A DNA stretch of 64,000 nt from Patescibacteria group bacterium (GCA_028707065.1 JAQTUZ010000004.1:6656-70655); one strand, 5' to 3'; shown: positions 12,448 to 64,000, numbered from the stretch's first letter. Made by a program: numbers and translations. Notes: generated from the letters alone by a model not told the origin.

Positions 12448-12504
12448 CCAATATTCAAAATAATAAATAAACAGTTTGATATCTGAATTTTCGCCAATAA
12501 ATGG

Positions 12505-12714
12505 TATTCAACCGCAGGTCAAGACCCGCCCCCCTATCTTTTCTGTTGGGTGTCCCCGCCACAAGTGGACGAGATCTTTATCGGCGCTCGCTCGGAAATA
12601 ATCCCCGCGAGGCGCGGGATCATTTCACTCACTCGCTTGATAAGCAAGGTTATCGGCGCTCGCTCGGAAATAATCCCCGCGAGGCGCGGGATCATTTCAC
12701 TCACTCGCTTGATA
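12505..12714 (-). repeat. copy 1 of a ~136-nt structured intergenic element (reverse orientation, with an internal duplication)
   Basis: The reverse complement aligns along its length with 44223-44358 and 62522-62657: TATCAAGCG…GAAAT(A/G)ATCCCGC-loop-GCGG(G/A)GATTATTTC…AGAAAAGAT…TTGA(A)TACC. Confidence 0.85.
12579..12714. repeat. perfect 64-nt direct repeat x2 (period 72 nt)
   Basis: TATCGGCGCTCGCTCGGAAATAATCCCCGCGAGGCGCGGGATCATTTCACTCACTCGCTTGATA occurs at 12579-12642 and 12651-12714, separated by AGCAAGGT. Confidence 0.95.
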
Positions 12715-12747
12715 ATAAAAAAAGACCGGTCGCGAGATCGGTCTTTT
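12715..12747. terminator. bidirectional intrinsic terminator-like hairpin
   Basis: A-run, AGACCG-N10-CGGTCT, then T-run. Confidence 0.6.
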
Positions 12748-12960
12748 GCCTGCTTATTGGCCGGCAGTAATAGTTTTTTGATAAGTAGATAGTTTTACTC
12801 GTTTCTTGCCCGGACGATTTTTCGCGCTAGCGGAGCTAGCCGTTTTTATAAACGGCGCATTATCTTTTTGTGGCCGCTGATTGTTATGGCAGAAATTCGG
12901 GTATCAGTCATCGGGCCTCCGTGAGGAAAAGGTTAAAATCCATCAATGGCGCGGGGAAAA

Positions 12961-13248
12961 TTAAAAATTTTCGACTGCTCGCAGTTTCCGGATCAATGAC
13001 CTTTTCAGTTTCATCAATCTTGAGTCCTTGGCCGAGATGCGGGTAACAAAGTTTCCGGAGACAAAATCATTTTTAGGGAAAACGCCGCCTTTTGACGCGC
13101 CTTCCGGCCGCAAAAGCTTAGTTGAGTATAAGCCGAGCTTCTTGTCTTCACCGGCGATCTTTACAAAAGCGCCGGTGAGCGTGATGAAACAGCTTCCTTT
13201 TCTGATAGGCACAAGCTTCTCCTTTGTTGATGGTGGAAAAAGGTGCAT
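12961..13248 (-). CDS. hypothetical protein (doubtful)
   Basis: 95-aa ORF with a protein-like, beta-rich composition, but no SD before the ATG and no recognisable family. Confidence 0.25.
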   Translation of the reverse strand: MHLFPPSTKEKLVPIRKGSCFITLTGAFVKIAGEDKKLGLYSTKLLRPEGASKGGVFPKNDFVSGNFVTRISAKDSRLMKLKRSLIRKLRAVENF

Positions 13249-13342
13249 TTTTGCTGACTAATCAAATTAACACAAATTAATAAAAAAAGCAAGCCACGAT
13301 CGCACAACACATAACTCGTAACACGTAACATGTTTCCTCTGC

Positions 13343-13433
13343 GCCATGCGGCAGTCCCCTAATCGGGAGACTGCCGCATGGCAAGGGAGTAAGAGGTCGC
13401 AAGTCCCCTGATCGGGAGACTGCCGCATGGCAA
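13343..13433. repeat. two direct copies of a hairpin element (CCATGCGGCAGTC-CCCT(A/G)ATCGGGA-GACTGCCGCATGG)
   Basis: Copy 1 (13343-13384) has perfect 13-bp arms. Copy 2 (13402-13433) keeps the loop and right arm, but its left arm is degenerate. Confidence 0.85.
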
Positions 13434-13485
13434 AGAACAGGTTACTTAGTGACAAAAATTATTAATTTTGTTAAAATATTTTTGT

Positions 13486-13566
13486 ATGAAAAATCAAGGA
13501 GGGAAAATATTTTTGATCTTGGGCGTTTTGCTATGTCCGGGATTTTTTATTGGCTTTGGCAAATAA
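13486..13566 (+). pseudogene. relic duplicate of the 5' end (signal peptide) of the LTD-protein gene
   Basis: ATGAAAAATCAAGGAGGGAAAATATTTTTGATCTTGGGCGTTTTGCTATGTCCGGGATTTTTT nearly matches 14084-14146. The copy reads MKNQGGKIFLILGVLLCPGFFIGFGK and then stops. Confidence 0.7.
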
Positions 13567-13595
13567 AAAACCCGCCAGTGAAATGTCCTGGCGGG
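13564..13595 (-). terminator. intrinsic terminator of the 87-aa membrane protein gene
   Basis: On the minus strand: CCCGCCAG-N9-CTGGCGGG followed by TTTTTTT. Confidence 0.8.
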
Positions 13596-13621
13596 ATAAT
13601 GACTCGTCCATGATCTGCAGC

Positions 13622-13885
13622 TTACGCCCAGGCCATGATTCCTCCTATTACAATGAGGATAAGCCCGAGATTTCTGAAGAACGTTCCTTGCAGCCAGATC
13701 GGAGCGCCACGACCGTCCTTTACTGTGTTCCGGGAAAGGATCCACCAGCCGGCAACTACCAAGCAAACGCCGAAGAAACCGGTACCCAGGTTGGGATTAT
13801 TCTTGTGCTTGTCGCTTATGCAGGAACAGAGAATGCAACTGAAAGCGCATAAAGTACACAGGAATGAAGAAATGTAAAAACGCAT
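13622..13885 (-). CDS. small Cys-rich membrane protein
   Basis: 87 aa with 2-3 hydrophobic helices, SD AAGGGGG 6 nt upstream of the ATG, and its own terminator. Confidence 0.55.
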   Translation of the reverse strand: MRFYISSFLCTLCAFSCILCSCISDKHKNNPNLGTGFFGVCLVVAGWWILSRNTVKDGRGAPIWLQGTFFRNLGLILIVIGGIMAWA

Positions 13886-14083
13886 AAGAGCCCCCTTGTT
13901 TGTTGTGGTGATTTTTTTTGGCCTTTATCAGATTATCATCTGATAAACGTTGATTTACCAGTGGATTTTTCAAAGATCTCTTTTGACATCCTATCTAATC
14001 ATAAGCCGGCATTTTTGTCAATATCGGCAAATCGGCGTTGCTGCCGGAAAAAAGTTAAATAATTCGGTAAAAAATTACTGGCT

Positions 14084-29677: not shown

Positions 29678-32443
29678 ATGCCGAAAAACAAGAAACCCGC
29701 GAAATTATCTTCCGTCCGCCCTGGGCGGACTACGGCGGACAAGCCCGCCTCCGCCAAGGCTACGGCGGACAAGGGCGGAAAAAAGCATAAAGTCGAGAGA
29801 AAAGAGGAGAAAGAAAAGAAAGTGGATAAAAAATCCATAGCTATTCCTGTTGGCGAAGTTGCGGCCGATAAAGCGGAGAAGAAGCAGCCTAAGCTGGAAA
29901 ATCCCGTTTCCGCCAAGGCTATGGGGGACAAGCCGGAGGACAAGGGCGAGATGGTCGGGCTGCAGCCTAAATCCGGCATGGGACAATCACGGACCATGTA
30001 TGGCTTGGTGCAAACCCAGCCGATCGTCGAAGAAATGAGCCGGTCATATTTGGATTACGCGATGAGCGTAATTGTTTCGCGCGCCTTGCCTGACGTCCGC
30101 GACGGCTTGAAACCGGTGCACCGCAAGATTTTATACGCGATGTGGGATATCGGCTTGCGCGCCGGCGGTAAATTTAGAAAATCAGCTACGGTCGTCGGCG
30201 AGGTCTTGGGCAAATATCATCCGCACGGCGACAGCGCCGCTTATGAATCGATGGTCCGCATGGCGCAGGATTTTTCCATGCGCTATCCGCTCGTCAAAGG
30301 CCAGGGAAACTTCGGTTCGATGGACGGCGATTCGGCCGCGGCCATGCGTTATACCGAAGCCAAGCTCTCGGCGATTTCCGAGGAGATGCTTTTTGATATT
30401 GATAAAAATACTGTTGATTTCATACCGACTTATGATGGTTCGCATCTTGAGCCGAGCGTTCTGCCATCCAAATTACCCAATCTTTTATTGAACGGCACCA
30501 TGGGCATCGCCGTCGGCATGTCCACGGAAATCCCGCCGCATAATTTGCGCGAACTTTCCGACGCCATCGCTTATCTGATCGAAAAACCGGATGCGACAGT
30601 CGAAGATCTCTGCCAATTCGTCAAAGGCCCGGATTTCCCGACCGGCGGAATTATTTATAATCAGAAAGATATCGAATCGGCTTACGGGACGGGCAAAGGC
30701 GGGATCGTGATGCGCGGCGTGGCCGAGATCGAAGAAATGAAAGGCGACAAATTTCAGATCGTCATTTCCGAAATACCCTATCAGGTTAATAAGGCGACTT
30801 TAGTGGAAAAGATCGCCGAGTTAGTGACAGAGAAAAAGATCGATGGCATCCGCGATTTGCGCGACGAATCCGACCGCGAGAAAAGCGTGCGCATCGTGAT
30901 TGAATTAAAGAAAGATGCTTATCCGAAAAAAGTTTTGAACGCCTTGTTCAAGATGACCGCCCTGCAATCAACCTTTCATGTCAATATGCTCGCCTTGGTC
31001 GACGGCATCCAGCCCAAGGTTTTGAATTTGAAATCGATTTTGGAAGAATATATCAAGCATCGCGAAGTGGTGGTCAGGCGCCGGACGCAATATGATCTGG
31101 ATAAAGCCAAGGATCGCGCCCATATTTTGGAAGGCTTGGTGATCGCTTTGGAAAATATCGATGCCGTCATCAAGACGATCAAAGCTTCCCGCGACAAGGA
31201 TGACGCGAAAATAAATCTGATCAAGAAATTCAAGCTGACCGAACGGCAGGCGATCGCCATTTTGGAAATGAAACTCCAGCAATTGGCCAATCTGGAAAGA
31301 TTGCGCGTCGAGGAAGAACTGAAAGAAAAGAAAAAATTGATCGCCGAATTGGAAGCGATCTTAAGATCAAAAACTAAAATATTAAGCATCGTCAAAACGG
31401 AATTGAAAGAATTGGCTGATAAATACGGCGATGAGCGCCGCACCCAAGTCGTCGCCCGCGGCGTTAAGGATTTTAGCATTGAAGATCTGGTGCCGAACGA
31501 AGAGGCGATCGTGATGATGACCCGCGATGGCTATATCAAGCGCCTGCCGCCTGATACGTTCAAACAGCAGGAACGCGGCGGCAAAGGCGTGATCGGCTTA
31601 TCGACCAAGGAAGAAGATACGGTGGAATTCATGTTCACCACCATGACTCATACTGATCTGCTATTTTTTACTACCAAGGGGCGTGTTTTCCAATTAAAGG
31701 CTTATGAGATTCCCGTGGCCTCTAGAACGGCCAAGGGCACGCCGATCGTTAACTTCCTTCAATTATTGTCCGAAGAAAAAATAACTTCCACTTTGCCTTT
31801 GGACAAGATCGTCGGCGCGGAATATTTATTCTTTGCCACCGAGCAAGGCTTGGTGAAAAAAGTCAAGCTGGAAGCTTTTGCCAATGTCCGCCGCTCCGGA
31901 TTGATCGCCATTAAAATAAAAGGCGAAGATAAATTGATCTGGGCCAAGCCGACTTCTGGCACTGACGATATCCAATTGATCACTTCCGAAGGCCAGTCGA
32001 TCCGTTTTGCCGAAGATGATGTTAGAGAAATGGGCCGCAATGCCGCTGGCGTCCGCGGCATCCGCCTCAAGGGCAAGGATGTGATGGTCGGCATGGGCGT
32101 AATTTCCACTGATAAAGAAAGAGTGAAAAAATATCAATTGATCAGCATTATGGCCAACGGTTTTGGCAAGCGCTCGCCGCTTTCTCTCTATAAAGTTCAG
32201 GGCCGCGGCGGTTCAGGCATCCGCACCGCGCATGTCACTGACAAGACCGGCAAATTAACCAACGCTTTCGTAGTCAATGCCGAAACTATGGCTGACCGCG
32301 ACCTCATTATTATTTCTGAAAAAGGCCAGGTGATCCGTCTGCCGTTCAAGCAGGTTAACGAACTCGGCCGCGACACCCAGGGCGTCCGGGTGATGCGCTT
32401 CAAGGAAGAGGGCGACAAGGTCGCCTGCGTAACCTGGGCCTAG
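29678..32443 (+). CDS. gyrA: DNA gyrase subunit A (start ambiguous; possible ~100-aa Lys/Ala-rich N-terminal extension)
   Basis: [33 protein letters not shown], the active-site region AAMRYTE, and C-terminal beta-pinwheel repeats. Alternative in-frame ATGs at 29951, 29978 and 29996 would give a canonical N-terminus. Confidence 0.95.
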
Positions 32444-32517
32444 CCCCCCTCCTTTCGAAGGAGGACCCCCCTCCTTTTCAAGGAGGGGTTTGGGGGTGGT
32501 TCTGGGGGTGGTTCTGC
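32444..32517. repeat. GC-rich palindromic element, intergenic reference copy (two hairpins plus a GGGGGTGGTTCT x2 tail)
   Basis: CCCCCCTCCTTTCGAAGGAGG, then CCCCCCTCCTTTTCAAGGAGGGG, then TTTGGGGGTGGTTCTGGGGGTGGTTCTGC directly after the gyrA stop. Confidence 0.9.
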
Positions 32518-44168: not shown

Positions 44169-44221
44169 GTCCGTTTCAATCACTGTGTTGCAAAACATGG
44201 TGGTCGAAACGGACTTTTTTA
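44169..44221 (+). terminator. intrinsic terminator (long loop)
   Basis: GTCCGTTTC-N28-GAAACGGAC followed by TTTTTT. Confidence 0.6.
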
Positions 44222-44222
44222 T

Positions 44223-44358
44223 TATCAAGCGAAGCGAGTGAAATAATTCCGCTACGGCGGAGATTATTTCCGAGCGAGCGATGATAAATACCTCGTCCGC
44301 TGGTGGCGAGGATACCTTTTAGAAAAGATGGGGCGAGTGCCTGCCCCGCGATTGAATA
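44223..44358 (+). repeat. copy 2 of the ~136-nt structured intergenic element
   Basis: TATCAAGCGAAGCGAGTGAAATAATTCCGC-TAC-GGCGGAGATTATTTCCGAGCGAGCGATGATAAATACCTCGTCC…GGCGAGGATACCTTTTAGAAAAGATGGGGC…GCCCCGCGATTGAATA. Confidence 0.85.
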
Positions 44359-44496
44359 CCATTTATTATTACAATTAAGAAATTGATTTAATTGGCAAAA
44401 AACAAGGGGTAAGATATAATATATAACAAAGAACAGGGAACAAAGAGCAATGCGTTAATAATTATTTTATACTCTTTGATTTATGTTCTTTGATCA

Positions 44497-57307: not shown

Positions 57308-59266
57308 ATGGCGGGAAGAAGGATCATCATTTTAATTTTTGTTTTAGGCGCATCGGCGGTCATCTTGGCCGCCGGTGCGTTTGTATTGGAGAAAAAGAAT
57401 TTTTCCGCGGAAAAGGCGATCAGCCCGGATCGGCCGGCTAATGAAGCGGTGAATGAATCGGCGCATATTTTTCCTTATGATCGTAATCTTTTCAATTCAG
57501 CCATCAGTAAAAATTATCTTGAGCGAATGGCGACGAGCGGGCCGGTCATTGCCGGCCTGGTGCCGCATCATGAGTTGGCCGGGGATCTGGCCGCGGAATT
57601 TTTTTCCTCGCTGGCGCAAAAACAAAAAGTTAATAATTTCATTGTCATCGGACCCTTGCACTCGGATCAAGCGGTCGGCCCCGCGGTAAGCGGGCGGTTT
57701 ATCTGGGATGCCGGGTTTGGCCAGGTGGAAAATAATTATGAAATACTGGACGATCTGGTCGCGGCTCATTTGGTGGTTTATGACGAGAATGCGGTGCGGA
57801 GCGAGCACGCTCTTTATAATATGGCGCCGTTCATCGCCCATTATTTTCCGGAGGCGAAGATCGCGCCGATCGCCTTGACTTCGCGTAATTCTCCGGAACA
57901 ATGTTTCGCTTTGGCTCAGGCTCTGCAGAAATATCTGGCCCAAGGGGATACGGTGCTGGTCGCCTCGATCGATTTTTCCCATTATCTTCCGGCTGATCAA
58001 ACTCCGGCCAAAAATTTGCGAATGATCGAGTTGATAAAAAATAAGGATTACCAGACGATTGCCGGCCTGGCCAATGATTATTTGGATTCGCCCCCTTCGC
58101 TTATCACCTTGCTTAAGGCCGCTGATCTGTCGGATGCCGGCGTTAATATTTTAGCTTCGACCAATTCCGGAGAAATTACCGGGACGCCGGTTCTTTCTTC
58201 AACCAGCTATATCAGCGCCTTTTTTGCCGTCCCCCTCCTTTCAAATGAGTCTGTCCCCGCGAAGGCGGGGAAGGGGTCTGGGCCCGTCTCGGTTTTACCT
58301 ACAGCGTCCAGTAGTCCCTTGAAGCTGCTTTTTTTCGGCGACATTATGCTTGATCGCCAGGTCGGCGAAAAGATCAAGGCTTCGGGAAGCTTGGACTGGA
58401 TCTTCAAGGGCTTGAATTCGACCGGAATTTTTCAAGGCAATGATATTGTTTCCGCCAATCTGGAAGGCGCGGCCACTGATAATGGCGCGCATTATCCGCC
58501 GGCCTTGGTTTTTGATTTTGCTTTCGCGCCCAAGCTGGTCGGAGAGCTCGCGAAATATAATTTTAATTATTTTAATCTGGCCAATAATCATTTAGCCGAT
58601 CAGGGCAAAAATGGTATAATAGAGACAGAGAAAAATCTTACTGATCTGGGTTTTGTTTTTGCCGGCTGCCAGGATCGCCAAGTCGGCGACTGCACGGCCA
58701 AAATTGTGGAGAAAAGCGGCCGCCAGATCGGGTTGATCGGCGCGAGCATGGTTTATGGCGCGCTTGATGAAAACCGCCTGATCGCCGAAGTAAAAAAGCT
58801 GGCCAGTTCCACCGATTTAGTGGCGGTGCAAATACATTGGGGAACGGAATACAAGCACGAGGCGGCGGCCAACCAAACCGTTTTGGCGCGCAAATTGATC
58901 GATGCCGGCGCTGATATCATCATCGGCCATCATCCGCATGTGGTCGGCGGGGTGGAACTATATAAAAATAAGCCGATTTTTTATTCGCTGGGGAATTTCG
59001 TTTTTGATCAGTATTTTTCTCTTGATACGCAGGAAGAGTTGGGAGTGAGGATAGCCGTAACCACCCCCAAACCCCTCCTTGGAAAGGAGGGGGGCGAGGG
59101 GAAAAATTTCCAGATCGATCTTTTGCCGATCAAATCGGAAGCCGGACGCTTGCGCCTGATGAATAACGCGGAGAAAGATAAATTTTTGACCAAGCTGGCG
59201 GGCTGGTCGATCGGCGATAAAAATTTTTTGTCGGAAGTCGGAGCGGGTAAAATAGTTATTGAATAA
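57308..59266 (+). CDS. fusion protein: Memo-like (AmmeMemoRadiSam B-type) N-domain plus CapA/PGA_cap metallophosphatase C-domain
   Basis: N-terminal TM helix. Memo-like blocks are GLVPHHELAG and ASIDFSHYLP. CapA-like blocks are LLFFGDIMLDR, ANLEGA, NLANNHLADQG, GHHPHVVGG and YSLGNFVFDQ. Confidence 0.7.
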   Translation: MAGRRIIILIFVLGASAVILAAGAFVLEKKNFSAEKAISPDRPANEAVNESAHIFPYDRNLFNSAISKNYLERMATSGPVIAGLVPHHELAGDLAAEFFSSLAQKQKVNNFIVIGPLHSDQAVGPAVSGRFIWDAGFGQVENNYEILDDLVAAHLVVYDENAVRSEHALYNMAPFIAHYFPEAKIAPIALTSRNSPEQCFALAQALQKYLAQGDTVLVASIDFSHYLPADQTPAKNLRMIELIKNKDYQTIAGLANDYLDSPPSLITLLKAADLSDAGVNILASTNSGEITGTPVLSSTSYISAFFAVPLLSNESVPAKAGKGSGPVSVLPTASSSPLKLLFFGDIMLDRQVGEKIKASGSLDWIFKGLNSTGIFQGNDIVSANLEGAATDNGAHYPPALVFDFAFAPKLVGELAKYNFNYFNLANNHLADQGKNGIIETEKNLTDLGFVFAGCQDRQVGDCTAKIVEKSGRQIGLIGASMVYGALDENRLIAEVKKLASSTDLVAVQIHWGTEYKHEAAANQTVLARKLIDAGADIIIGHHPHVVGGVELYKNKPIFYSLGNFVFDQYFSLDTQEELGVRIAVTTPKPLLGKEGGEGKNFQIDLLPIKSEAGRLRLMNNAEKDKFLTKLAGWSIGDKNFLSEVGAGKIVIE

Positions 59267-59293: not shown

Positions 59294-59860
59294 ATGAAAT
59301 TTTTTGAACCAAAAAGCCGGGGGGCGAATTTATTCCGCGATCTGGCGATTATTCTTTTTAGCATCATTATTACGATTTTGTTGATAAAAACCGGCGTCCT
59401 GAACACTTTATTGGCCGGAACTCAACAGGTAAAAATATTAGGAAGTTTTATCGCGGGAATGTTTTTTACTTCCATCTTCACGACCGCGCCGGCAACGATA
59501 ACTTTGGCGGAGCTCGCCCGCTCCAATTCTATTTGGCAGGTGGCGATTTTCGGGGGGATAGGGGCGACGATCGGGGATTTGGTTATTTTTCAATTTCTTA
59601 AAAATGAATTGGTCGAAGATTTTTCCGGCTTGGTTAAGAAGTACGGTTCGAAAAGAGTTATCGCGATCTTCCACCTGAAATTTTTGCGCTGGTTTTTTGC
59701 TTTTTTGGGAGCGCTGGTGATCGCCTCGCCCTTGCCCGATGAATTAGGGCTGGCAATGATGGGGGTGTCTAAGGTCAAAACCCGGGTCTTTATTCCTCTG
59801 TCTTTCGCGCTTAATACCTTGGGAATTTTGATTATCGGCCTGATCGCCAAATCATTATGA
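59294..59860 (+). CDS. membrane protein (4-5 TM helices)
   Basis: 188 aa and hydrophobic. Overlaps the next gene by 4 nt (ATGA). Confidence 0.55.
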   Translation: MKFFEPKSRGANLFRDLAIILFSIIITILLIKTGVLNTLLAGTQQVKILGSFIAGMFFTSIFTTAPATITLAELARSNSIWQVAIFGGIGATIGDLVIFQFLKNELVEDFSGLVKKYGSKRVIAIFHLKFLRWFFAFLGALVIASPLPDELGLAMMGVSKVKTRVFIPLSFALNTLGILIIGLIAKSL

Positions 59861-61005
59861 AAATATCCAAGAATTACTTTATGGCCGTGGCGGTTTTGGT
59901 CGGCGCGATTACCGGCGCCGGAGTTTTTGCCATGCCTTTTGTTTTGACTCATTCCGGTCTTTGGCCGTTTGTTTTTTGGTTTCCCATTTTGGTCGCGGTC
60001 CAATGCCTGATCCATCTTCTTTTTGCCAAAGTCATTTTGTCCACCAAGGGCTTGCACCGCGTTCCCGGCTACACGGAAATTTATGCCGGAAAGAATTGGA
60101 AAAAAATTGTTTCGATTTTTGCCGTAATCGGCGGCTGGGGCACGATCCTGGCCTATATAATTTTGGGCGGCGTCTTTTTTAATCAGTTTTTTTCCCCGCT
60201 GATCGGGGGCAGCCTTTTCACTAATTCGCTCATTTTTTTCGCCTTGGAAACTGTGGTGGTCATTGCCGGATTAAAGACGATCGCGGGATCGGAAATGATT
60301 TTTTCCTTTTTACTCCTTATTTTATTCGTGGTGCTGTCGGTCAAATGCTTCGGCCGGTTTGATCTGAGCAATTTTACGGCGGTCAATTGGGAGGATTTTT
60401 TTCTCCCTTATGGCGTGATTTTTTTCGCGATTGGCGGCGATGCGGCCATTCCGGAAGTGGTAAAACTTTTGGATAAGGAAAAGGAAAAAATAAAAAGCGC
60501 GATCTTGTGGGGGACGATCTTGCCCGCGGTTATGATGTTTATTTTTGTGATCGCCACGGTCGGGGCAATGGGCGCGTTGACTACCGCAGACGCTTTGTCT
60601 GGATTGAACAAATTTTTCGGCAATGGCTTTGTTTCCATCTCCCTGCTTTTCGGCTTAATTTGCATTGCCACTTCGTTCTGGGTATTTGCCCAAGCGGTGC
60701 GGGAAATATTCTGGTGGGACTTTAAGATCAATAAGTATTGGTCGCTGGTTTTAGCCGTCGGCGTTCCGCTGGCATTTTTTATTTTCGGCTTTACTAATTT
60801 GACGACAGTCGTTTCTCTTTCCGGCGCGATCACCAGCGGCGTTTTAGGAATTATTCTGATTTCTCTGACCGCGGCCGTGGACCGTGAGGGGCAAAAAAAA
60901 TCGCCCATCGCCATTAAAACTTCCCGGCCGTTGGCGATCGTTTTGTATTCTCTTTTCATTGTCGGGTTTTTGACCGAGCTGTGGACGATAATTTTTAAAT
61001 TATGA
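59857..61005 (+). CDS. amino-acid permease-like transporter (~11 TM helices)
   Basis: The N-terminus …AVAVLVGAITGAGVFAMPFV… is typical of amino acid/aromatic amino acid permease families. 382 aa and polytopic. Confidence 0.65.
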   Translation: MKISKNYFMAVAVLVGAITGAGVFAMPFVLTHSGLWPFVFWFPILVAVQCLIHLLFAKVILSTKGLHRVPGYTEIYAGKNWKKIVSIFAVIGGWGTILAYIILGGVFFNQFFSPLIGGSLFTNSLIFFALETVVVIAGLKTIAGSEMIFSFLLLILFVVLSVKCFGRFDLSNFTAVNWEDFFLPYGVIFFAIGGDAAIPEVVKLLDKEKEKIKSAILWGTILPAVMMFIFVIATVGAMGALTTADALSGLNKFFGNGFVSISLLFGLICIATSFWVFAQAVREIFWWDFKINKYWSLVLAVGVPLAFFIFGFTNLTTVVSLSGAITSGVLGIILISLTAAVDREGQKKSPIAIKTSRPLAIVLYSLFIVGFLTELWTIIFKL

Positions 61006-61571
61006 AAATCGCGGTAATTTCCGATCTTCACGATAATCTGGTCAACTTGAGAAAATGTCTCTCTTGGTGCGGGCAAAATAATATCGAGAAGCTGATCTGC
61101 TGCGGCGACGTGACCAACGCGGAGACGCTGGGAATTCTTTCCCGGGAATTTAAGGGAGAAATTTTTTTAGTCCGCGGCAATTTGGAGATCTACCAAGAAG
61201 AAGAAATCGAGCCTTATAAAAATTATACTTATGGCGGGCGGCTTGCCGGCCATAGCCTTGGCGACGGCCGGACGGCGATTTGGGAGATTGATGGAAAAAA
61301 AGTCGGCGTCTGCCATGAACCTTTTTTTATCAATCAAGTTTTAGCAAAAGCAAAATCCCCCCTCCTTTCTAAGGAGGGGTCTGGGGGTGGTTCTGCAAAG
61401 GCGGCGGACATCGTCTTTTACGGCCATACTCATAAGCCCTGGATCGAAGAAAAAGACCATGTTCAAATAGTGAATCCGGGAACTTTGGGCGGAGTCTTCA
61501 CTCAGCCGACTTTTGCTGCTTGGGATACCGTGAGTGGTAAACTGGAATTAAAATTGCTGAATAATCTCTAA
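61002..61571 (+). CDS. YfcE/MJ0936-type metallophosphoesterase
   Basis: MKIAVISDLHDN, CCGDV, VRGNLE and FYGHTHKP motifs. Carries a 14-aa insertion encoded by the GC-rich palindromic element. Confidence 0.8.
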   Translation: MKIAVISDLHDNLVNLRKCLSWCGQNNIEKLICCGDVTNAETLGILSREFKGEIFLVRGNLEIYQEEEIEPYKNYTYGGRLAGHSLGDGRTAIWEIDGKKVGVCHEPFFINQVLAKAKSPLLSKEGSGGGSAKAADIVFYGHTHKPWIEEKDHVQIVNPGTLGGVFTQPTFAAWDTVSGKLELKLLNNL

Positions 61572-61596: not shown

Positions 61597-62382
61597 ATGA
61601 ATATTGATCGGCAAATTAAACAAATCGCGATCAACGCGGCCAAACAGGCCGGTAAGGCTTTGAGCGCGGAATATTTCCGCTTCAATCGGGCCGACGTCCA
61701 GATGAAATCGCGCTTTGAAATTTTGACCCGGGCGGATCTTTTGAGCGAGGAAATTATTTTAAAAGAGATCAGGCGTAATTTTCCGCATCACCATATTTTG
61801 TCCGAAGAAACCGGCGATAATAAAGCGGTGTCGGATTATTTTTGGATCATTGATCCTTTGGACGGAACCACTAATTTTTTCATGCGCGATCCAATGTGGT
61901 CGATCTCGATTGCCTTGGCTTATCAAGGCGAATTGATCTTGGGGATTGTTTACGCGCCGATCTTGGGTGAATTTTATCTGGCCGAAAAGGGTGAGGGCGC
62001 AACCTTGAATGGTCGATCAATAAAAGTTTCCGATATCAGTAAAAATCAGGTAGTTAATTTGTTTTGTCATGGTCATAATGATCCGGCCATAAAAAAGGCC
62101 GTGAAATATTATACCTATCAGAAAATTCATGGTTTTGATTCTCGGCAGATAGGATCGGCCGCGCTGGAATTGGCTTATACTGCCGGAGGCCGGGTTGAAT
62201 CGATCTCGATTCCGGGCGCTGATCTTTATGACGTGGCTGCCGGCGTGCTTTTGGTCAAAGAAGCGGGCGGAAAAGTGACTGATTTGAAAAATAAGGAATG
62301 GACAATTGCCAGTCAGGACATGGTCGCTTCTAATGGCAAGGTCCATCAGGATGTTTTGGGTGTTTTTAAGAAAATCAGCTAA
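61597..62382 (+). CDS. suhB: inositol monophosphatase family protein
   Basis: ILSEETG…, WIIDPLDGTTNF, and the C-terminal WD-like block (…DVAAGVLLVKEAGG). Confidence 0.85.
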   Translation: MNIDRQIKQIAINAAKQAGKALSAEYFRFNRADVQMKSRFEILTRADLLSEEIILKEIRRNFPHHHILSEETGDNKAVSDYFWIIDPLDGTTNFFMRDPMWSISIALAYQGELILGIVYAPILGEFYLAEKGEGATLNGRSIKVSDISKNQVVNLFCHGHNDPAIKKAVKYYTYQKIHGFDSRQIGSAALELAYTAGGRVESISIPGADLYDVAAGVLLVKEAGGKVTDLKNKEWTIASQDMVASNGKVHQDVLGVFKKIS

Positions 62383-62396
62383 AGACCTTAAGGCTC

Positions 62397-62425
62397 TTGA
62401 CAGCTTTTTTGATTTGTAATATAAC
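62397..62425 (+). promoter_or_regulatory. sigma-70-like promoter (TTGACA-N17-TATAAC)
   Basis: Read directly, 15 nt after the suhB-like stop. Confidence 0.5.
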
Positions 62426-62429
62426 ACAA

Positions 62430-62522
62430 TTAAGTGGGTGAATTCCCTGTTTAATGGTGTTAGTCGAAGCAGTATGGGCTTTGCTCGAACGAAGCAATCG
62501 TTTTGGCAAAGCCCTTTTTTTT
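62430..62522 (+). ncRNA. candidate ~90-nt small RNA (promoter-to-terminator unit without an ORF)
   Basis: Bounded by the promoter at 62397-62425 and the terminator GGGCTTTGC-N21-GCAAAGCCC-TTTTTTTT (62476-62522). The loop contains CGAAGCAATCG, as does the terminator at 62854-62903. Confidence 0.35.
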
Positions 62523-62657
62523 ATCAAGCGAAGCGAGCGAAATAATCCCGCGACAGCGGAGATTATTTCCGAGCGAGCGATGATAAATACTTCGTCCGGC
62601 GGCACGCGAGGATACCTTTCAGAAAAGATGGGTGCGGGGATTGCCTTGCGCTTGATA
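62522..62657 (+). repeat. copy 3 of the ~136-nt structured intergenic element
   Basis: Terminal inverted repeat TATCAAGCG…CGCTTGATA. Internal hairpins are GAAATAATCCCGC-GACA-GCGGAGATTATTTC, CTTCGTCC…GCGAGG and GCGGGG-ATTG-CCTTGC. Confidence 0.85.
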
Positions 62658-62752
62658 CCATTCGTTTGTTATAATTATCTTGGTTCATTCAGCCCCTTTT
62701 CTGGCATGAAAAGGGATATCCGCATTTCAACCCCTTTAAAGAGAGGTGAATT

Positions 62753-62830
62753 ATGCTTCACTTTACCATCGGCCAAAACATTGGCCCTCCGGCGATCATA
62801 GTCGCCAAAAAAACAGCGCGCATCAAATAA
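62753..62830 (+). CDS. possible 25-aa micropeptide (MLHFTIGQNIGPPAIIVAKKTARIK)
   Basis: Strong SD AGAGAGGTG 4-5 nt upstream of the ATG, followed by its own terminator. Too short to support further. Confidence 0.25.
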   Translation: MLHFTIGQNIGPPAIIVAKKTARIK

Positions 62831-62853
62831 GAAAAAAGTGCGTGGTGTTGGTC

Positions 62854-62903
62854 GGGTTCTGGCTAAGCGAAGCAATCGCTTGGACAGAACCCCCTATTTT
62901 TTT
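62854..62903 (+). terminator. intrinsic terminator
   Basis: GGGTTCTG-N23-CAGAACCC followed by CTATTTTTTT. Confidence 0.8.
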
Positions 62904-62909
62904 ACACGC

Positions 62910-62937
62910 TTGATCGGTGGAAAAAAATTGCTACAAT
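62910..62937 (+). promoter_or_regulatory. sigma-70 promoter (TTGATC-N16-TGcTACAAT)
   Basis: Read directly. It drives a ~300-nt unit holding only two tiny overlapping ORFs (17 and 15 codons, ATGA overlap). Confidence 0.55.
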
Positions 62938-63219
62938 TATATTCTGTTCCTTTGCTCATTATTATTTAAATTTATCTAAATATTATCCCCTGTAAAAAGG
63001 GGAGTTGGCAATAAACCTTCCACTTTCAAAAATAGAAAGGACAACCGTCTATGATTGTATCGATCAGCACGTCACAAGCGGCCGCCAAAACGCAAACCGC
63101 ATGAAGAAGCCGGCGTTACCAATGAAAGGGGAAAAAGATGAGGCATAAACACCCTCTGCCAAGGGATTCTCCCTAGGAAAATAGTGTCGGAATATATCCG
63201 ATAGTTAGGGCAAATTCGG

Positions 63220-63254
63220 CGGAAGCAAGACTAAGGTCTTCGCTTCCGTTTTTT
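63220..63254 (+). terminator. intrinsic terminator
   Basis: CGGAAGCAAGAC-TAAG-GTCTTCGCTTCCG followed by TTTTTT. Confidence 0.8.
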
Positions 63255-63265
63255 AAAATGTGGTA

Positions 63266-63294
63266 TTGACAAATTTTATAGAATGTGATAATGT
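63266..63294 (+). promoter_or_regulatory. consensus sigma-70 promoter (TTGACA-N17-TGaTAATGT)
   Basis: Read directly, 12 nt after the preceding terminator. Confidence 0.65.
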
Positions 63295-63334
63295 TAAAAT
63301 ACGAACGTTGAAAAGATTATAGCCGGTTTTAGAG

Positions 63335-63363
63335 CCACTGGGAAGGCGTCCCAATGGTTTTTT
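63335..63363 (+). terminator. early hairpin plus T-run (attenuator-like) ~40 nt after the predicted transcription start
   Basis: CCACTGGGA-AGGCG-TCCCAATGG (one C/A mismatch) followed by TTTTTT. Confidence 0.5.
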
Positions 63364-63885
63364 GTTCCACCTTAACTATCCCAACCCAGCGCGGGTGCCG
63401 GATAATAGAAAGAGAAAGCATACATTCGCCGCCTGTTTTCATTGTTTCGGTAAACACATTTTCTCAACACGGGCCACGGACCTACTGTGGACACAGGAAG
63501 CAGTGGGGCCAGTTCTGTACCGGCAGGAACTAAAATACTTGTCCGGACATTGTTGCCTGCACTCCCCATCGGGACCCCGCACGGGCGGTAAACCGAGGCT
63601 CCAGGCAACGCGATGCGCAATCGACAATCGCCGCCACCAACGACATCATTTCCTGCGGCGACGCGCAAAACCTCGTTCCTTTAATGCGCGCTACGTTCTG
63701 TCGATATGAAGAACGAGCAATTCCAACCACGAAATCCAATCCCGGGCTAACGTGACATTGGCCCAAAGGAAAGGGACATCATGCGAAGAAAATTCGCCTA
63801 TGAAAGTCGAGCAGCGCCGCAGGCACTGACATCCTGAATCTTCAGGGGCAGCAACCTGCAAGGCTGACTGTCTACGATAGCATAC

Positions 63886-63922
63886 GGGAGCGAGATTGAT
63901 CTAATCAACTCGCTCCTTTTTT
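63886..63922 (+). terminator. intrinsic terminator
   Basis: GGAGCGAG(A)TTGAT-CTA-ATCAACTCGCTCC followed by TTTTTT. Confidence 0.85.
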
Positions 63923-64000
63923 AATATCCAATATCAAATAATAAATATCAAAAAAATATTATAATATTTAAATATTTTTTAATATATCGGTTATTTGATA

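Follow-up and report, generated by a model that had tools for sequence, protein, structure and literature searches.

The stretch analysed here, positions 62383-64000 of a 64,000-nt window (the window being the whole stretch of DNA that was examined) from an uncultivated Patescibacteria bacterium of the candidate phyla radiation (CPR), follows a suhB-like gene and carries a row of four predicted promoter-to-terminator units on the + strand, here called units 1 to 4 (promoters P1 to P4, terminators T1 to T4). A preliminary description of this DNA had listed these promoters and terminators together with mini-open reading frames (mini-ORFs), and all of them were found at the same coordinates. Judged by its sequence, the stretch appears to be a real, partly conserved island of small genes, of modest novelty and belonging to no known family. 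We consider it probable that this spacer between two genes is a row of independent small + strand transcription units with repeats superimposed on them; units 1, 2 and 4 would be ancestral to the clade and under constraint, and unit 3 with its promoter P3 would be recent.

The gene ending at 62382 belongs to the inositol-monophosphatase family (PF00459 match) and is suhB-like; the best NCBIfam matches of its product are HisN/SuhB-type models with scores under their cut-offs, and an identical SuhB-like protein is on record from a metagenome-assembled genome (MAG) labelled 'Patescibacteria group bacterium'. The loci of relatives used for comparison are designated by L-numbers; L021, L022, L002, L005 and L006 bear suhB, and some others, L029 among them, were reached through UvrA relatives. 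In L002, L005 and L006, the SuhB proteins of which are 82-83% identical to that of the window, a spacer of 0.4-0.85 kb separates suhB from a converging uvrA. Since the window ends in 84 bases that share 95% identity with a stretch of L002 that stops ~65 nt short of the uvrA stop codon, the island is most likely the spacer between the converging suhB-like gene and uvrA, the latter lying just past the window end. Among the UvrA relatives listed, none is located on the contig bearing the window's SuhB. The only contig with the same suhB that could be retrieved (L001) breaks off within the ~150-nt repeat described below, and run SRR22315508 also contains the contig of this suhB. The spacer measures between 97 nt (L028) and 2.3 kb (L030) among relatives, and L028 has no island at all. 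The genes between the phosphoesterase gene and unit 1 also differ (L002 7623-10786; spacers of L028, L029, L030 and L032): suhB is present in only part of the clade, and L002 has an extra P-type ATPase gene. Conservation and synteny were examined as had been proposed, and the signals of units 1, 2 and 4 turned out to be kept in relatives whose neighbouring genes are 60-66% identical at the DNA level (window against L029: phosphoesterase 66%, permease 60%).

The sequence signals themselves are established, as is their conservation. A simple terminator scan returned 9 sites against 3.1 +/- 2.0 expected and a promoter scan 9 sites against 4.9 +/- 2.4 expected. The pattern TTGACA-N16-18-TAnnnT occurs at 11 sites in the 64 kb, compared with 1.9 +/- 1.5 in shuffled sequences; the promoter consensus of this genome is therefore sharp, and P4 conforms to it. 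Most of the 11 sites have the form TTGACA-N14-TGnTAnnnT and lie upstream of genes. P1, P3 and P4 show the hexamers near TTGACA and TATAAT, 16-18 nt apart, that characterize sigma-70-type promoters. T1 to T4 are stable, G+C-rich hairpins on the transcribed strand (-19 to -26 kcal/mol, z -5.3 to -6.6) with 5-8 U directly behind each, as is characteristic of intrinsic terminators. Moreover, the promoter hexamers are kept while the sequences between them vary, in eight lineages for P1, in five for P2 and in four for P4; P3 is found in the window only.

Unit 1 is preceded by P1 (TTGACA-N17-TATAAC, 62398..62426, + strand), a sigma-70-type promoter lying directly after the suhB-like stop codon, with its -35 box TTGACA at 62398-62403 and its -10 box TATAAC at 62421-62426, separated by a 17-nt spacer. 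The predicted small RNA of ~90 nt (62433..62522, + strand) would start at the position that this promoter implies and end at T1 (62476-62522, + strand, -24.6 kcal/mol, z -5.4, U-run). P1 and T1 recur in eight lineages (window, L021, L022, L002, L005, L006, L029 and L032). In the six suhB lineages, the window included, TTGAC(A/G/T), 17 nt and TAT(A/T/C)(A/T)(A/T/C) stand right after the stop codon with differing spacer sequences, the long hairpin of a terminator following at 60-90 nt downstream. L029 and L032, which are without suhB, have the unit 1 module directly behind the phosphoesterase gene instead, and in L029 the -35 box of P1 encodes the final codons of that gene. Because the hexamers are conserved over varying spacers, P1 bears the signature of a working promoter. 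T1 is likewise conserved in relatives, with changes in the stem. Six relatives share the 5' motif (T)TGGTTGTTCTCT (in variant form in L021 and L022), followed by a variable hairpin and the terminator. A search for targets of the conserved 5' stretches of units 1 and 4 gave only self-matches within the DNA examined. By its layout, unit 1 would be a gene for a small RNA, with one terminator serving both this RNA and the upstream messenger RNA (mRNA). In L021 (SuhB 86% identical), a different element of ~165 nt (1141-1305), with the long inverted ends AACCCATCTCAAAAAATA ... TATTTTTTGAGATGGGTT, lies between the suhB stop codon and P1.

Unit 2 (62682..62903, + strand) is a predicted small mRNA of ~220 nt, made up of a 5' hairpin (62694-62715, + strand), the Shine-Dalgarno (SD) sequence GAGAGGTGA (62740-62748, + strand), an ORF of 25 codons beginning 5 nt further on (62753-62830, + strand; MLHFTIGQNIGPPAIIVAKKTARIK) and T2 (62854-62903, + strand, -26.4 kcal/mol, z -6.1, U-run), so that the succession of an SD-preceded 25-codon ORF and a terminator, as first described, was confirmed. 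Its promoter P2 (62646..62675, + strand) has the extended -10 sequence TGtTATAAT (TATAAT at 62670-62675) and a -35 box, TTGCGC, that comes from the end of an inserted repeat. The original -35 box, TTGGCA, is still present at 62503-62508 (+ strand) in the 3' arm of T1. Indeed, L002, L005 and L006 have TTGGCA in the 3' arm of T1, then exactly 17 nt, then TGnTATAAT, TATGAT or TACGAT, and the equivalent in L030 is TTGCAA-N17-TATAAT. The start of unit 2 reads TTGGTTCC or TCTGTTCC in L002, L005 and L006, and the pairing of the 5' hairpin is kept through two-sided changes in four lineages. T1 and T2 share the apical sequence CGAAGCAATCG, which occurs exactly only at these two sites of the window; on account of their common 5' start sequence and terminator hairpin, units 1 and 2 are regarded as paralogues.

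The arrangement of SD, ATG and an ORF of 23-38 codons is found in six lineages, with 4-8 nt between SD and ATG. The SD has a GGAG core in four relatives, is GAGAGGTGA in the window and AAAGGGG in L030; the ORF spans 23-29 codons in L002, L005 and L006, and L030 has a more distant version of 38 residues. The peptides are MLHFTIGQNIGPPAIIVAKKTARIK in the window, MRQFTIGQNIGPPAILIAQSSAR in L002, MFHLTYGLTLGPPASLSAMPRRKIG in L006, MLLFDSGQQHGPPASVFTKRDPTEEKDGH in L029 and MTTLHSPPALISAKIDKNPNAKKAAIAV in L005. The motif G-x-x-x-GPPA is present in four of the six lineages, and the L005 mini-ORF, which carries an in-frame deletion, keeps only S-P-P-A. This in-frame conservation favours a micropeptide or a translated leader as the product of the 25-codon ORF; two hairpins within the ORF could also account for the conservation. 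The mini-ORF had no match in Pfam or NCBIfam, and of the exact peptides only the 38-residue version of L030 is present in the protein collection. A type I toxin was considered and rejected, the only hydrophobic stretch being interrupted by Gly-Pro-Pro and the homologues being more polar.

A sequence that had been described as a 136-nt element of unit 2 is instead a repeat that was inserted into the promoter of this unit. The repeat is ~150 nt long, intergenic and bounded by inverted ends (62515..62667, + strand); it lies inside the T-run of T1 and between the original -35 and the -10 box of P2. Its inverted ends are TATCAAGCG at 62522-62530 and the reverse complement CGCTTGATA at 62649-62657. 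The word TATCAAGCG occurs 6 times in the window against 0.56 expected, five of these within copies of the element. Two further copies are located at 44216-44367 and at 12496-12723, the latter with a duplicated hairpin module, which makes three loci in total, and each copy directly follows the T-run of a terminator in the same orientation as that terminator. In other genomes the repeat was found in a Ca. Falkowbacteria MAG (L023, L024; ~82%), in L029 (~79%) and as a half copy in a Berkelbacteria locus (L025), and L002, L005 and L006 have empty sites. Owing to these empty sites and to the further copies in the window and in other CPR genomes, the repeat is identified as an insertion. Like miniature inverted-repeat transposable elements (MITEs), it combines terminal inverted repeats with several copies and with empty sites in relatives; the insertion lies within a T-run, so that its borders, and with them any target-site duplication, are not fixable to the base. 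The hairpin module is doubled at 12578-12715 (two identical 66-nt copies, 72 nt apart) and present three times at L029 19612-19764. The fold of the repeat has a z of -3.3 with six compensatory pairs, the apical stem included, and an invariant helix, in which GCGAGC faces GCGAGC, reads as two Watson-Crick pairs alternating with two G-A mismatches, in agreement with the predicted fold. This tandem G-A helix looks like a protein-binding motif. A coding or leader function of the element was rejected, since its reading frames are not kept between copies; by sequence and distribution it is a MITE- or BOX-like repeat and does not serve the mini-ORF as a leader. With the repeat in place, the -10 sequence TGtTATAAT of P2 lies 18 nt from the TTGCGC that the repeat supplied.

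Unit 3 (62944..63254, + strand) is a non-coding stretch of ~300 nt that ends at T3 (63218-63254, + strand, -19.9 kcal/mol, z -5.3, U-run). P3 (TTGATC-N16-TGcTACAAT, 62910-62937, + strand) is carried by a window-only stretch of ~54 nt (62904..62958, + strand), which has no counterpart in L002 when the two are aligned. The core of P3, TGCTACAATTATATTCTGTTCC, is a paralogous copy of the P2 core, and besides three unrelated matches the motif TAYAATTAT..TTnnGTTC occurs in the window only at 62670 and 62932. Unit 3 aligns with L002 alone, at ~68% identity, and is thus known from two lineages in all, being absent from L005, L006, L029, L030 and L032. The two overlapping mini-ORFs that had been noted here are present; they are not conserved as peptides. 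The 17-codon ORF (63052-63105, + strand, preceded by GAAAGGA) differs from an 18-codon ORF of L002 by a 3-nt indel and the two peptides are unrelated, and the second ORF is broken by a 1-nt indel. The comparison with L002 yielded only three compensatory pairs.

Unit 4 (63301..63922, + strand) is predicted to be a non-coding RNA of ~620 nt, A/C-rich and U-poor. It is preceded by P4 (TTGACA-N17-TGaTAATGT, 63266..63294, + strand; -35 box TTGACA at 63266-63271) and ends at T4 (63886-63922, + strand, -19.3 kcal/mol, z -6.6, U-run). The early hairpin with a T-run that had been reported is present as a conserved leader hairpin plus U-run at 63331-63364 (+ strand, -14.2 kcal/mol, z -2.5). Two further parts are conserved, a core at 63515-63610 (+ strand), with the sequences CATTGTTGCCTGCAC ... 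GCGGTAAACCGAGG, and a block at 63766-63800 (+ strand) consisting of AAGGAAAGGGACATC, ATG and a hairpin. A homologue of the unit was found at L029 13045-13858, in the same orientation and at the same position, that is, from the unit 2 terminator to an AT-rich palindrome beside uvrA; it comprises TTGACA-N17-TGaTAATAT, the leader, a body of ~700 nt and a terminator. The leader common to the two is CGAACnTTGAAAAG ... CCAYYGGGAAGGnnTCCCAATGG-TTTTTTGTTC. Between window and L029, promoter and leader are 75% identical, the core 83% and the block AAGGAAAGG(G/A)ACATC-ATG-GCGAA..TTCGC 72%, compared with 45-51% for the rest of unit 4 and 60-66% for the neighbouring coding sequences. The same local structure around the core was predicted independently in both sequences.

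A promoter of the P4 form stands at the same site beside uvrA in L029 (TAATAT), L030 (TAGGAT) and L032 (TAAGCT). The last unit of L030 and L032 has the promoter TTGACA-N11-TTGTGATAnnnT, an A/C-rich, U-poor body of 270-800 nt, GGAGGAACA-ATG near the 3' end and a terminator, in L030 also the palindrome; a search for motifs shared with unit 4 of the window gave nothing past chance-level 8-mers. L002 keeps only GTATTGACA, the -35 box of P4, immediately followed by the AT-rich palindrome. Since this box stays behind, L002 seems to have lost unit 4 by deletion. Compared with L002 alone, unit 4 had appeared as a window-only insertion (63279-63923, 645 nt), a reading that the L029 homologue and the leftover -35 box overturned. 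Further copies were sought and not found in phage or plasmid records; blastn and tblastx of unit 4 against all loci retrieved gave nothing, a covariance model built on the core turned up no sequence besides the two copies already known, and an exact 24-mer had no match among viral and GTDB genome contigs, a weak negative given that this 24-mer spanned a variable loop. Ahead of the leader hairpin there is neither an alternative pairing nor a sequence of aptamer size. It is plausible that the leader hairpin with its U-run is an attenuator or the 3' end of an RNA of ~65 nt. On comparative grounds, unit 4 is a conserved, non-coding, weakly structured predicted RNA gene with few constrained modules.

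That no convincing protein gene occurs up to the window end was upheld by Pfam, protein-collection and codon-phase checks. The ORFs of the island gave nothing significant against Pfam, the best E-value (0.069) being far below the level of the cut-off, and a concatenated six-frame translation of unit 4 had no match among 5.8 billion proteins. The G+C content of unit 4 is flat across the three phases (0.55/0.52/0.54), compared with about 0.50/0.35/0.49 in neighbouring genes, and codon periodicity is absent from the copies in the window, L029 and L030. Moreover, a 2-nt indel between window and L029 inside the core means that the core holds no reading frame. The lack of a coding signal in unit 4 is thus established, and a hidden or decayed protein gene was rejected for want of a Pfam match, relatives and codon periodicity. 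The proposed Rfam scan was also run: Rfam 15 at the gathering threshold gave 0 matches in the 64-kb window and 0 in L002, L029, L030 and L032; permissive scans (E up to 10) of the island, the unit 4 core and the L029 island gave chance-level matches far under threshold, and ARAGORN found neither a transfer RNA (tRNA) nor a transfer-messenger RNA (tmRNA) in the 64-kb window. With no Rfam or ARAGORN match, the possibility that unit 4 is an RNA of a described kind, such as RNase P, tmRNA, a riboswitch or one of the large non-coding RNAs, was rejected.

Other repeats lie at the edge of the island and elsewhere in the window. An AT-rich palindromic element (63917..64000, matching its own reverse complement) is cut by the window end; it measures ~100 nt and has arms AATATCCAATATCAAATAATAAATATC. 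In four lineages (window; L002 11479-11580; L029 12945-13050; L030 12975-13070) its place is next to the terminator of uvrA, behind the final small unit, and a further copy (L024 2086-2165) stands at an unrelated site in a Falkowbacteria MAG. The window copy is 95% identical to L002 11479-11562, with flanks at about 68%. A GC-rich palindromic repeat of ~36 nt, CCCCCCTCCTTnnAAGGAGGGGTnTGGGGGTGGTT, occurs in coding sequence at 61357-61392, 59059-59094 and 32466-32501, and also at 32439-32464. Within the phosphoesterase gene, ~17 in-frame residues (SPLLSKEGSGGGSAKAA) stem from it; L028, L029 and L030 have different in-frame insertions in the same two loops of this protein, and L002, L005 and L032 have none. 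The repeat thus recalls palindromic elements whose insertion into a gene preserves the reading frame. The Trp/Tyr-permease-family protein of the window (59857-61005) is only 49-54% identical to the copies of six relatives, which are 76-81% identical among themselves, and the flanking phosphoesterase, Memo/PGA_cap and SuhB proteins are 70-83% identical between window and L002; this suggests that the permease-family gene of the window was replaced by a divergent copy. The rest of the window had been called densely coding, yet a second ORF-poor stretch exists at 12448-14083. It has two small ORFs of 87 and 95 codons with SD sites on the - strand, paired palindromes at 13338-13436, short repeats of the CGTAACA type and a 67-nt direct repeat at 13485 and 14083.

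A number of observations weigh against a row of independent, constrained units. The distribution is narrow: no similarity to the island was detected in L010-L020 (SuhB 29-63% identical), seven of which were read downstream of suhB and have no island there, and a metagenome scan with suhB gained no further close relative. The 5' motif of unit 1 is missing from the window's own copy and from L032. In the mini-ORF of unit 2, the third-position excess (differences at codon positions 1/2/3 of 33/30/47, most changes altering the residue) would be a modest coding signal, and outside G-x-x-x-GPPA the micropeptide is poorly conserved. Unit 3, the promoter and body of which have little comparative support, is the least supported of the four. 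Unit 4 had been described as GC-richer and structured, and the first part stands (GC 53-59% against ~45%); the unit is only weakly structured. Its core in 150-nt windows is no more stable than shuffled sequences (z about 0), and the z of the whole-core fold is -2.2 in the window and -1.2 in L029. With two sequences known, no covariation could be shown for this core, the bodies of the last units of L030 and L032 are not alignable to it, and, because L002, L005, L006 and L028 lack unit 4, it is dispensable.

As a rival explanation, the spacer might be mostly a non-functional dumping ground between converging genes, made of repeats, duplicated promoter and terminator fragments and decayed DNA, and its promoter-like and terminator-like signals would then yield nothing that the cell uses. 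The content of the spacer is highly variable between close relatives, with lengths from 97 nt to 2.3 kb, a unit 3 confined to two lineages and an L002 without unit 4; at least three kinds of repeat have landed in it, and most of the unit 4 body cannot be aligned even to its L029 homologue. Neutral debris would, however, hardly conserve promoter hexamers and terminators, the hairpin and SD-ATG of unit 2 and three unit 4 blocks above the level of neighbouring coding DNA, nor orient all four terminators as their promoters, and we consider this explanation unlikely. A similar judgement applies to the proposal that units 1 and 2 form one regulated unit, with P1 as the start of transcription, T1 as an attenuator and the mini-ORF on those transcripts that read through; the mini-ORF would encode a leader peptide whose translation, pausing at G-P-P-A, controls read-through of T2 into downstream sequence. 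The two units always stand in tandem when both are present and have 5' and terminator sequences in common, no part of the peptide is conserved better than Pro-Pro, and L029 shows no clear -10 box for P2, so that unit 2 would there depend on read-through of T1. Against this, TGnTA(T/C)(A/G)AT follows T1 in the window, L002, L005 and L006, and the -35 boxes at the 17-nt distance in three relatives and in L030 argue for a promoter of unit 2's own. L022 and L032 have unit 1 without unit 2, and no alternative antiterminator pairing was found. The ORF stops 24-27 nt ahead of T2, which means that a terminating ribosome cannot reach the stem, and the sequence past T2 differs among lineages and has its own promoter.

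Two explanations concern unit 4 alone. It might be DNA of foreign or mobile origin, or what is left of a decayed gene, ~645 nt long and inserted beside the AT-rich palindrome; it has a GC content 8-14 points above that of the genome, long stop-free stretches in several frames and sharp borders in T-runs, it is lacking from the closest relative, L002, and no other copy was found in the searches made. The same-position homologue in the distant L029, in which promoter, leader, core and terminator are conserved, and the leftover -35 box of L002, which points to a deletion there and not to an insertion in the window, make this very unlikely, and unit 4 has no inverted ends, clear target duplication, codon periodicity (window, L029 and L030) or protein relatives. 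Still less credible is a protein gene missed through another start, frame or genetic code. Overlapping ORFs of 115, 98 and 78 codons do exist in unit 4, and JGI called a 150-codon ORF in the L029 homologue; that ORF is a singleton, the Pfam and protein searches returned nothing significant (best E 0.069) and no relatives, periodicity is absent, no frame survives the 2-nt indel of the best conserved block, and the remaining window reads normally under code 11. The earlier opinion that the island represents small RNAs or micropeptides rather than junk is supported by conservation for units 1, 2 and 4, and has little support for unit 3. The high expression suggested for them at the same time would follow from the quality of the promoters.

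For a row of independent units, the following picture can be proposed, in which transcription is inferred, as are the translation of the mini-ORF, an attenuating leader and regulation of any kind. A strong promoter of the sigma-70 type (TTGACA, 17 nt, extended -10) would drive each unit, and an intrinsic terminator would close it. Unit 1 would yield an RNA of ~90 nt whose terminator is common with the upstream gene, in the manner of a 3'-end small RNA with a promoter of its own, and unit 2 an mRNA of ~220 nt, the 25-codon ORF of which would make a micropeptide with the GPPA motif or act as a translated leader. In unit 4, the stem-loop and U-run in the first ~65 nt may halt some or most transcripts as a short RNA, and those reading through would extend for ~560 nt more, through the core of ~95 nt, to T4. 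Unit 3 would be a younger, lineage-restricted unit driven by a duplicate of the unit 2 promoter. Small repeats would have landed in this spacer, the ~150-nt repeat inside P2 and the AT-rich palindrome beside uvrA.

To our knowledge, almost nothing is known of small RNAs and micropeptides in the CPR. Its members are uncultivated organisms, and the standard RNA-family models are blank here, with 0 Rfam matches in 64 kb. The locus offers coordinates and conserved signals for three small genes with predicted starts and ends, which are testable in metatranscriptomes. It also calls for caution in the use of single comparisons: the closest relative alone made unit 4 seem a unique insertion, and only a distant genome revealed it as ancestral and constrained. 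It is conceivable, and we suggest it tentatively, that with unit 4 a new family of regulatory RNAs has been seen for the first time in Patescibacteria, long (0.3-0.9 kb), A/C-rich, U-poor and made from a consensus promoter beside uvrA, in which the conserved stem-loop and U-run split the product into a ~65-nt and a long form, and that together with the pair of units 1 and 2 it is among the first CPR regulatory RNA loci supported by comparative genomics. If this were true, the long form of unit 4 would carry a core of ~95 nt constrained more strongly than neighbouring protein genes.

Among known systems, the TIGR arrays of TIGR-Tas systems are common in the CPR; such an array consists of ~36-nt units in which two alternating repeats of 8-12 nt are separated by ~9-nt spacers, repeated 5-15 times next to a gene with a Nop domain (Tas) (PMC12045711). 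Unit 4 resembles them as a promoter-driven non-coding sequence of a few hundred nt with a rho-independent terminator in a Patescibacteria genome, and differs in having neither the ~36-nt period nor alternating 8-12-nt repeats. A TIGR array was accordingly rejected: the best autocorrelation lags of unit 4 are 78, 112 and 71, none near 36, and Tandem Repeats Finder returned nothing. Unlike in TIGR-Tas systems, no Nop-domain gene is adjacent, the neighbours being the inositol-monophosphatase gene on the left and, by synteny, uvrA on the right. With the large orphan RNAs of bacteria that have Rfam entries (OLE, GOLLD, ROOL, HEARO and raiA), unit 4 shares a length of hundreds of nt, a GC content above that of the genome, a promoter and terminator of its own, a conserved core and the lack of an ORF. 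Its weak fold, very narrow distribution, freely evolving body and A/C-rich, U-poor composition are unlike these RNAs, and the likeness is thus one of layout only.

Small RNA genes of the DapZ and MicL type in enterobacteria lie at the 3' end of a coding gene, have their own promoter and use the terminator of the mRNA. Unit 1 is similar in its promoter at or overlapping the end of the upstream gene, its short predicted transcript and its shared intrinsic terminator; it differs in that there is no sequence relation and in that the window copy is without the 5' motif. Leader and arrest peptides comprise the leaders of the trpL/pheL type and arrest peptides containing Pro-Pro. Unit 2 recalls them, and small-ORF genes in general, through an ORF of 23-38 codons with a strong SD behind a structured 5' leader, a terminator soon after the ORF and Pro-Pro as its best conserved part. 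Unlike with trpL or pheL, no regulated gene lies downstream, and the ORF ends too far ahead of T2 to allow attenuation of the classic type.

MITEs, the BOX elements of pneumococci and REP/BIME sequences are miniature inverted-repeat or modular intergenic repeats. The ~150-nt repeat is like them in its inverted ends of ~9 nt, its lack of coding capacity, its intergenic location in multiple copies, its empty sites and a hairpin module that can be present in tandem two or three times. It is unlike them in being 78-86% identical across distant CPR lineages, with no matching transposase seen, in its invariant tandem G-A internal loops, and in that it always follows the T-run of a terminator in the orientation of that terminator. 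The copy in P2 shows how such a terminator-seeking element can separate the two boxes of a promoter and provide a new -35 box in place of the old one.

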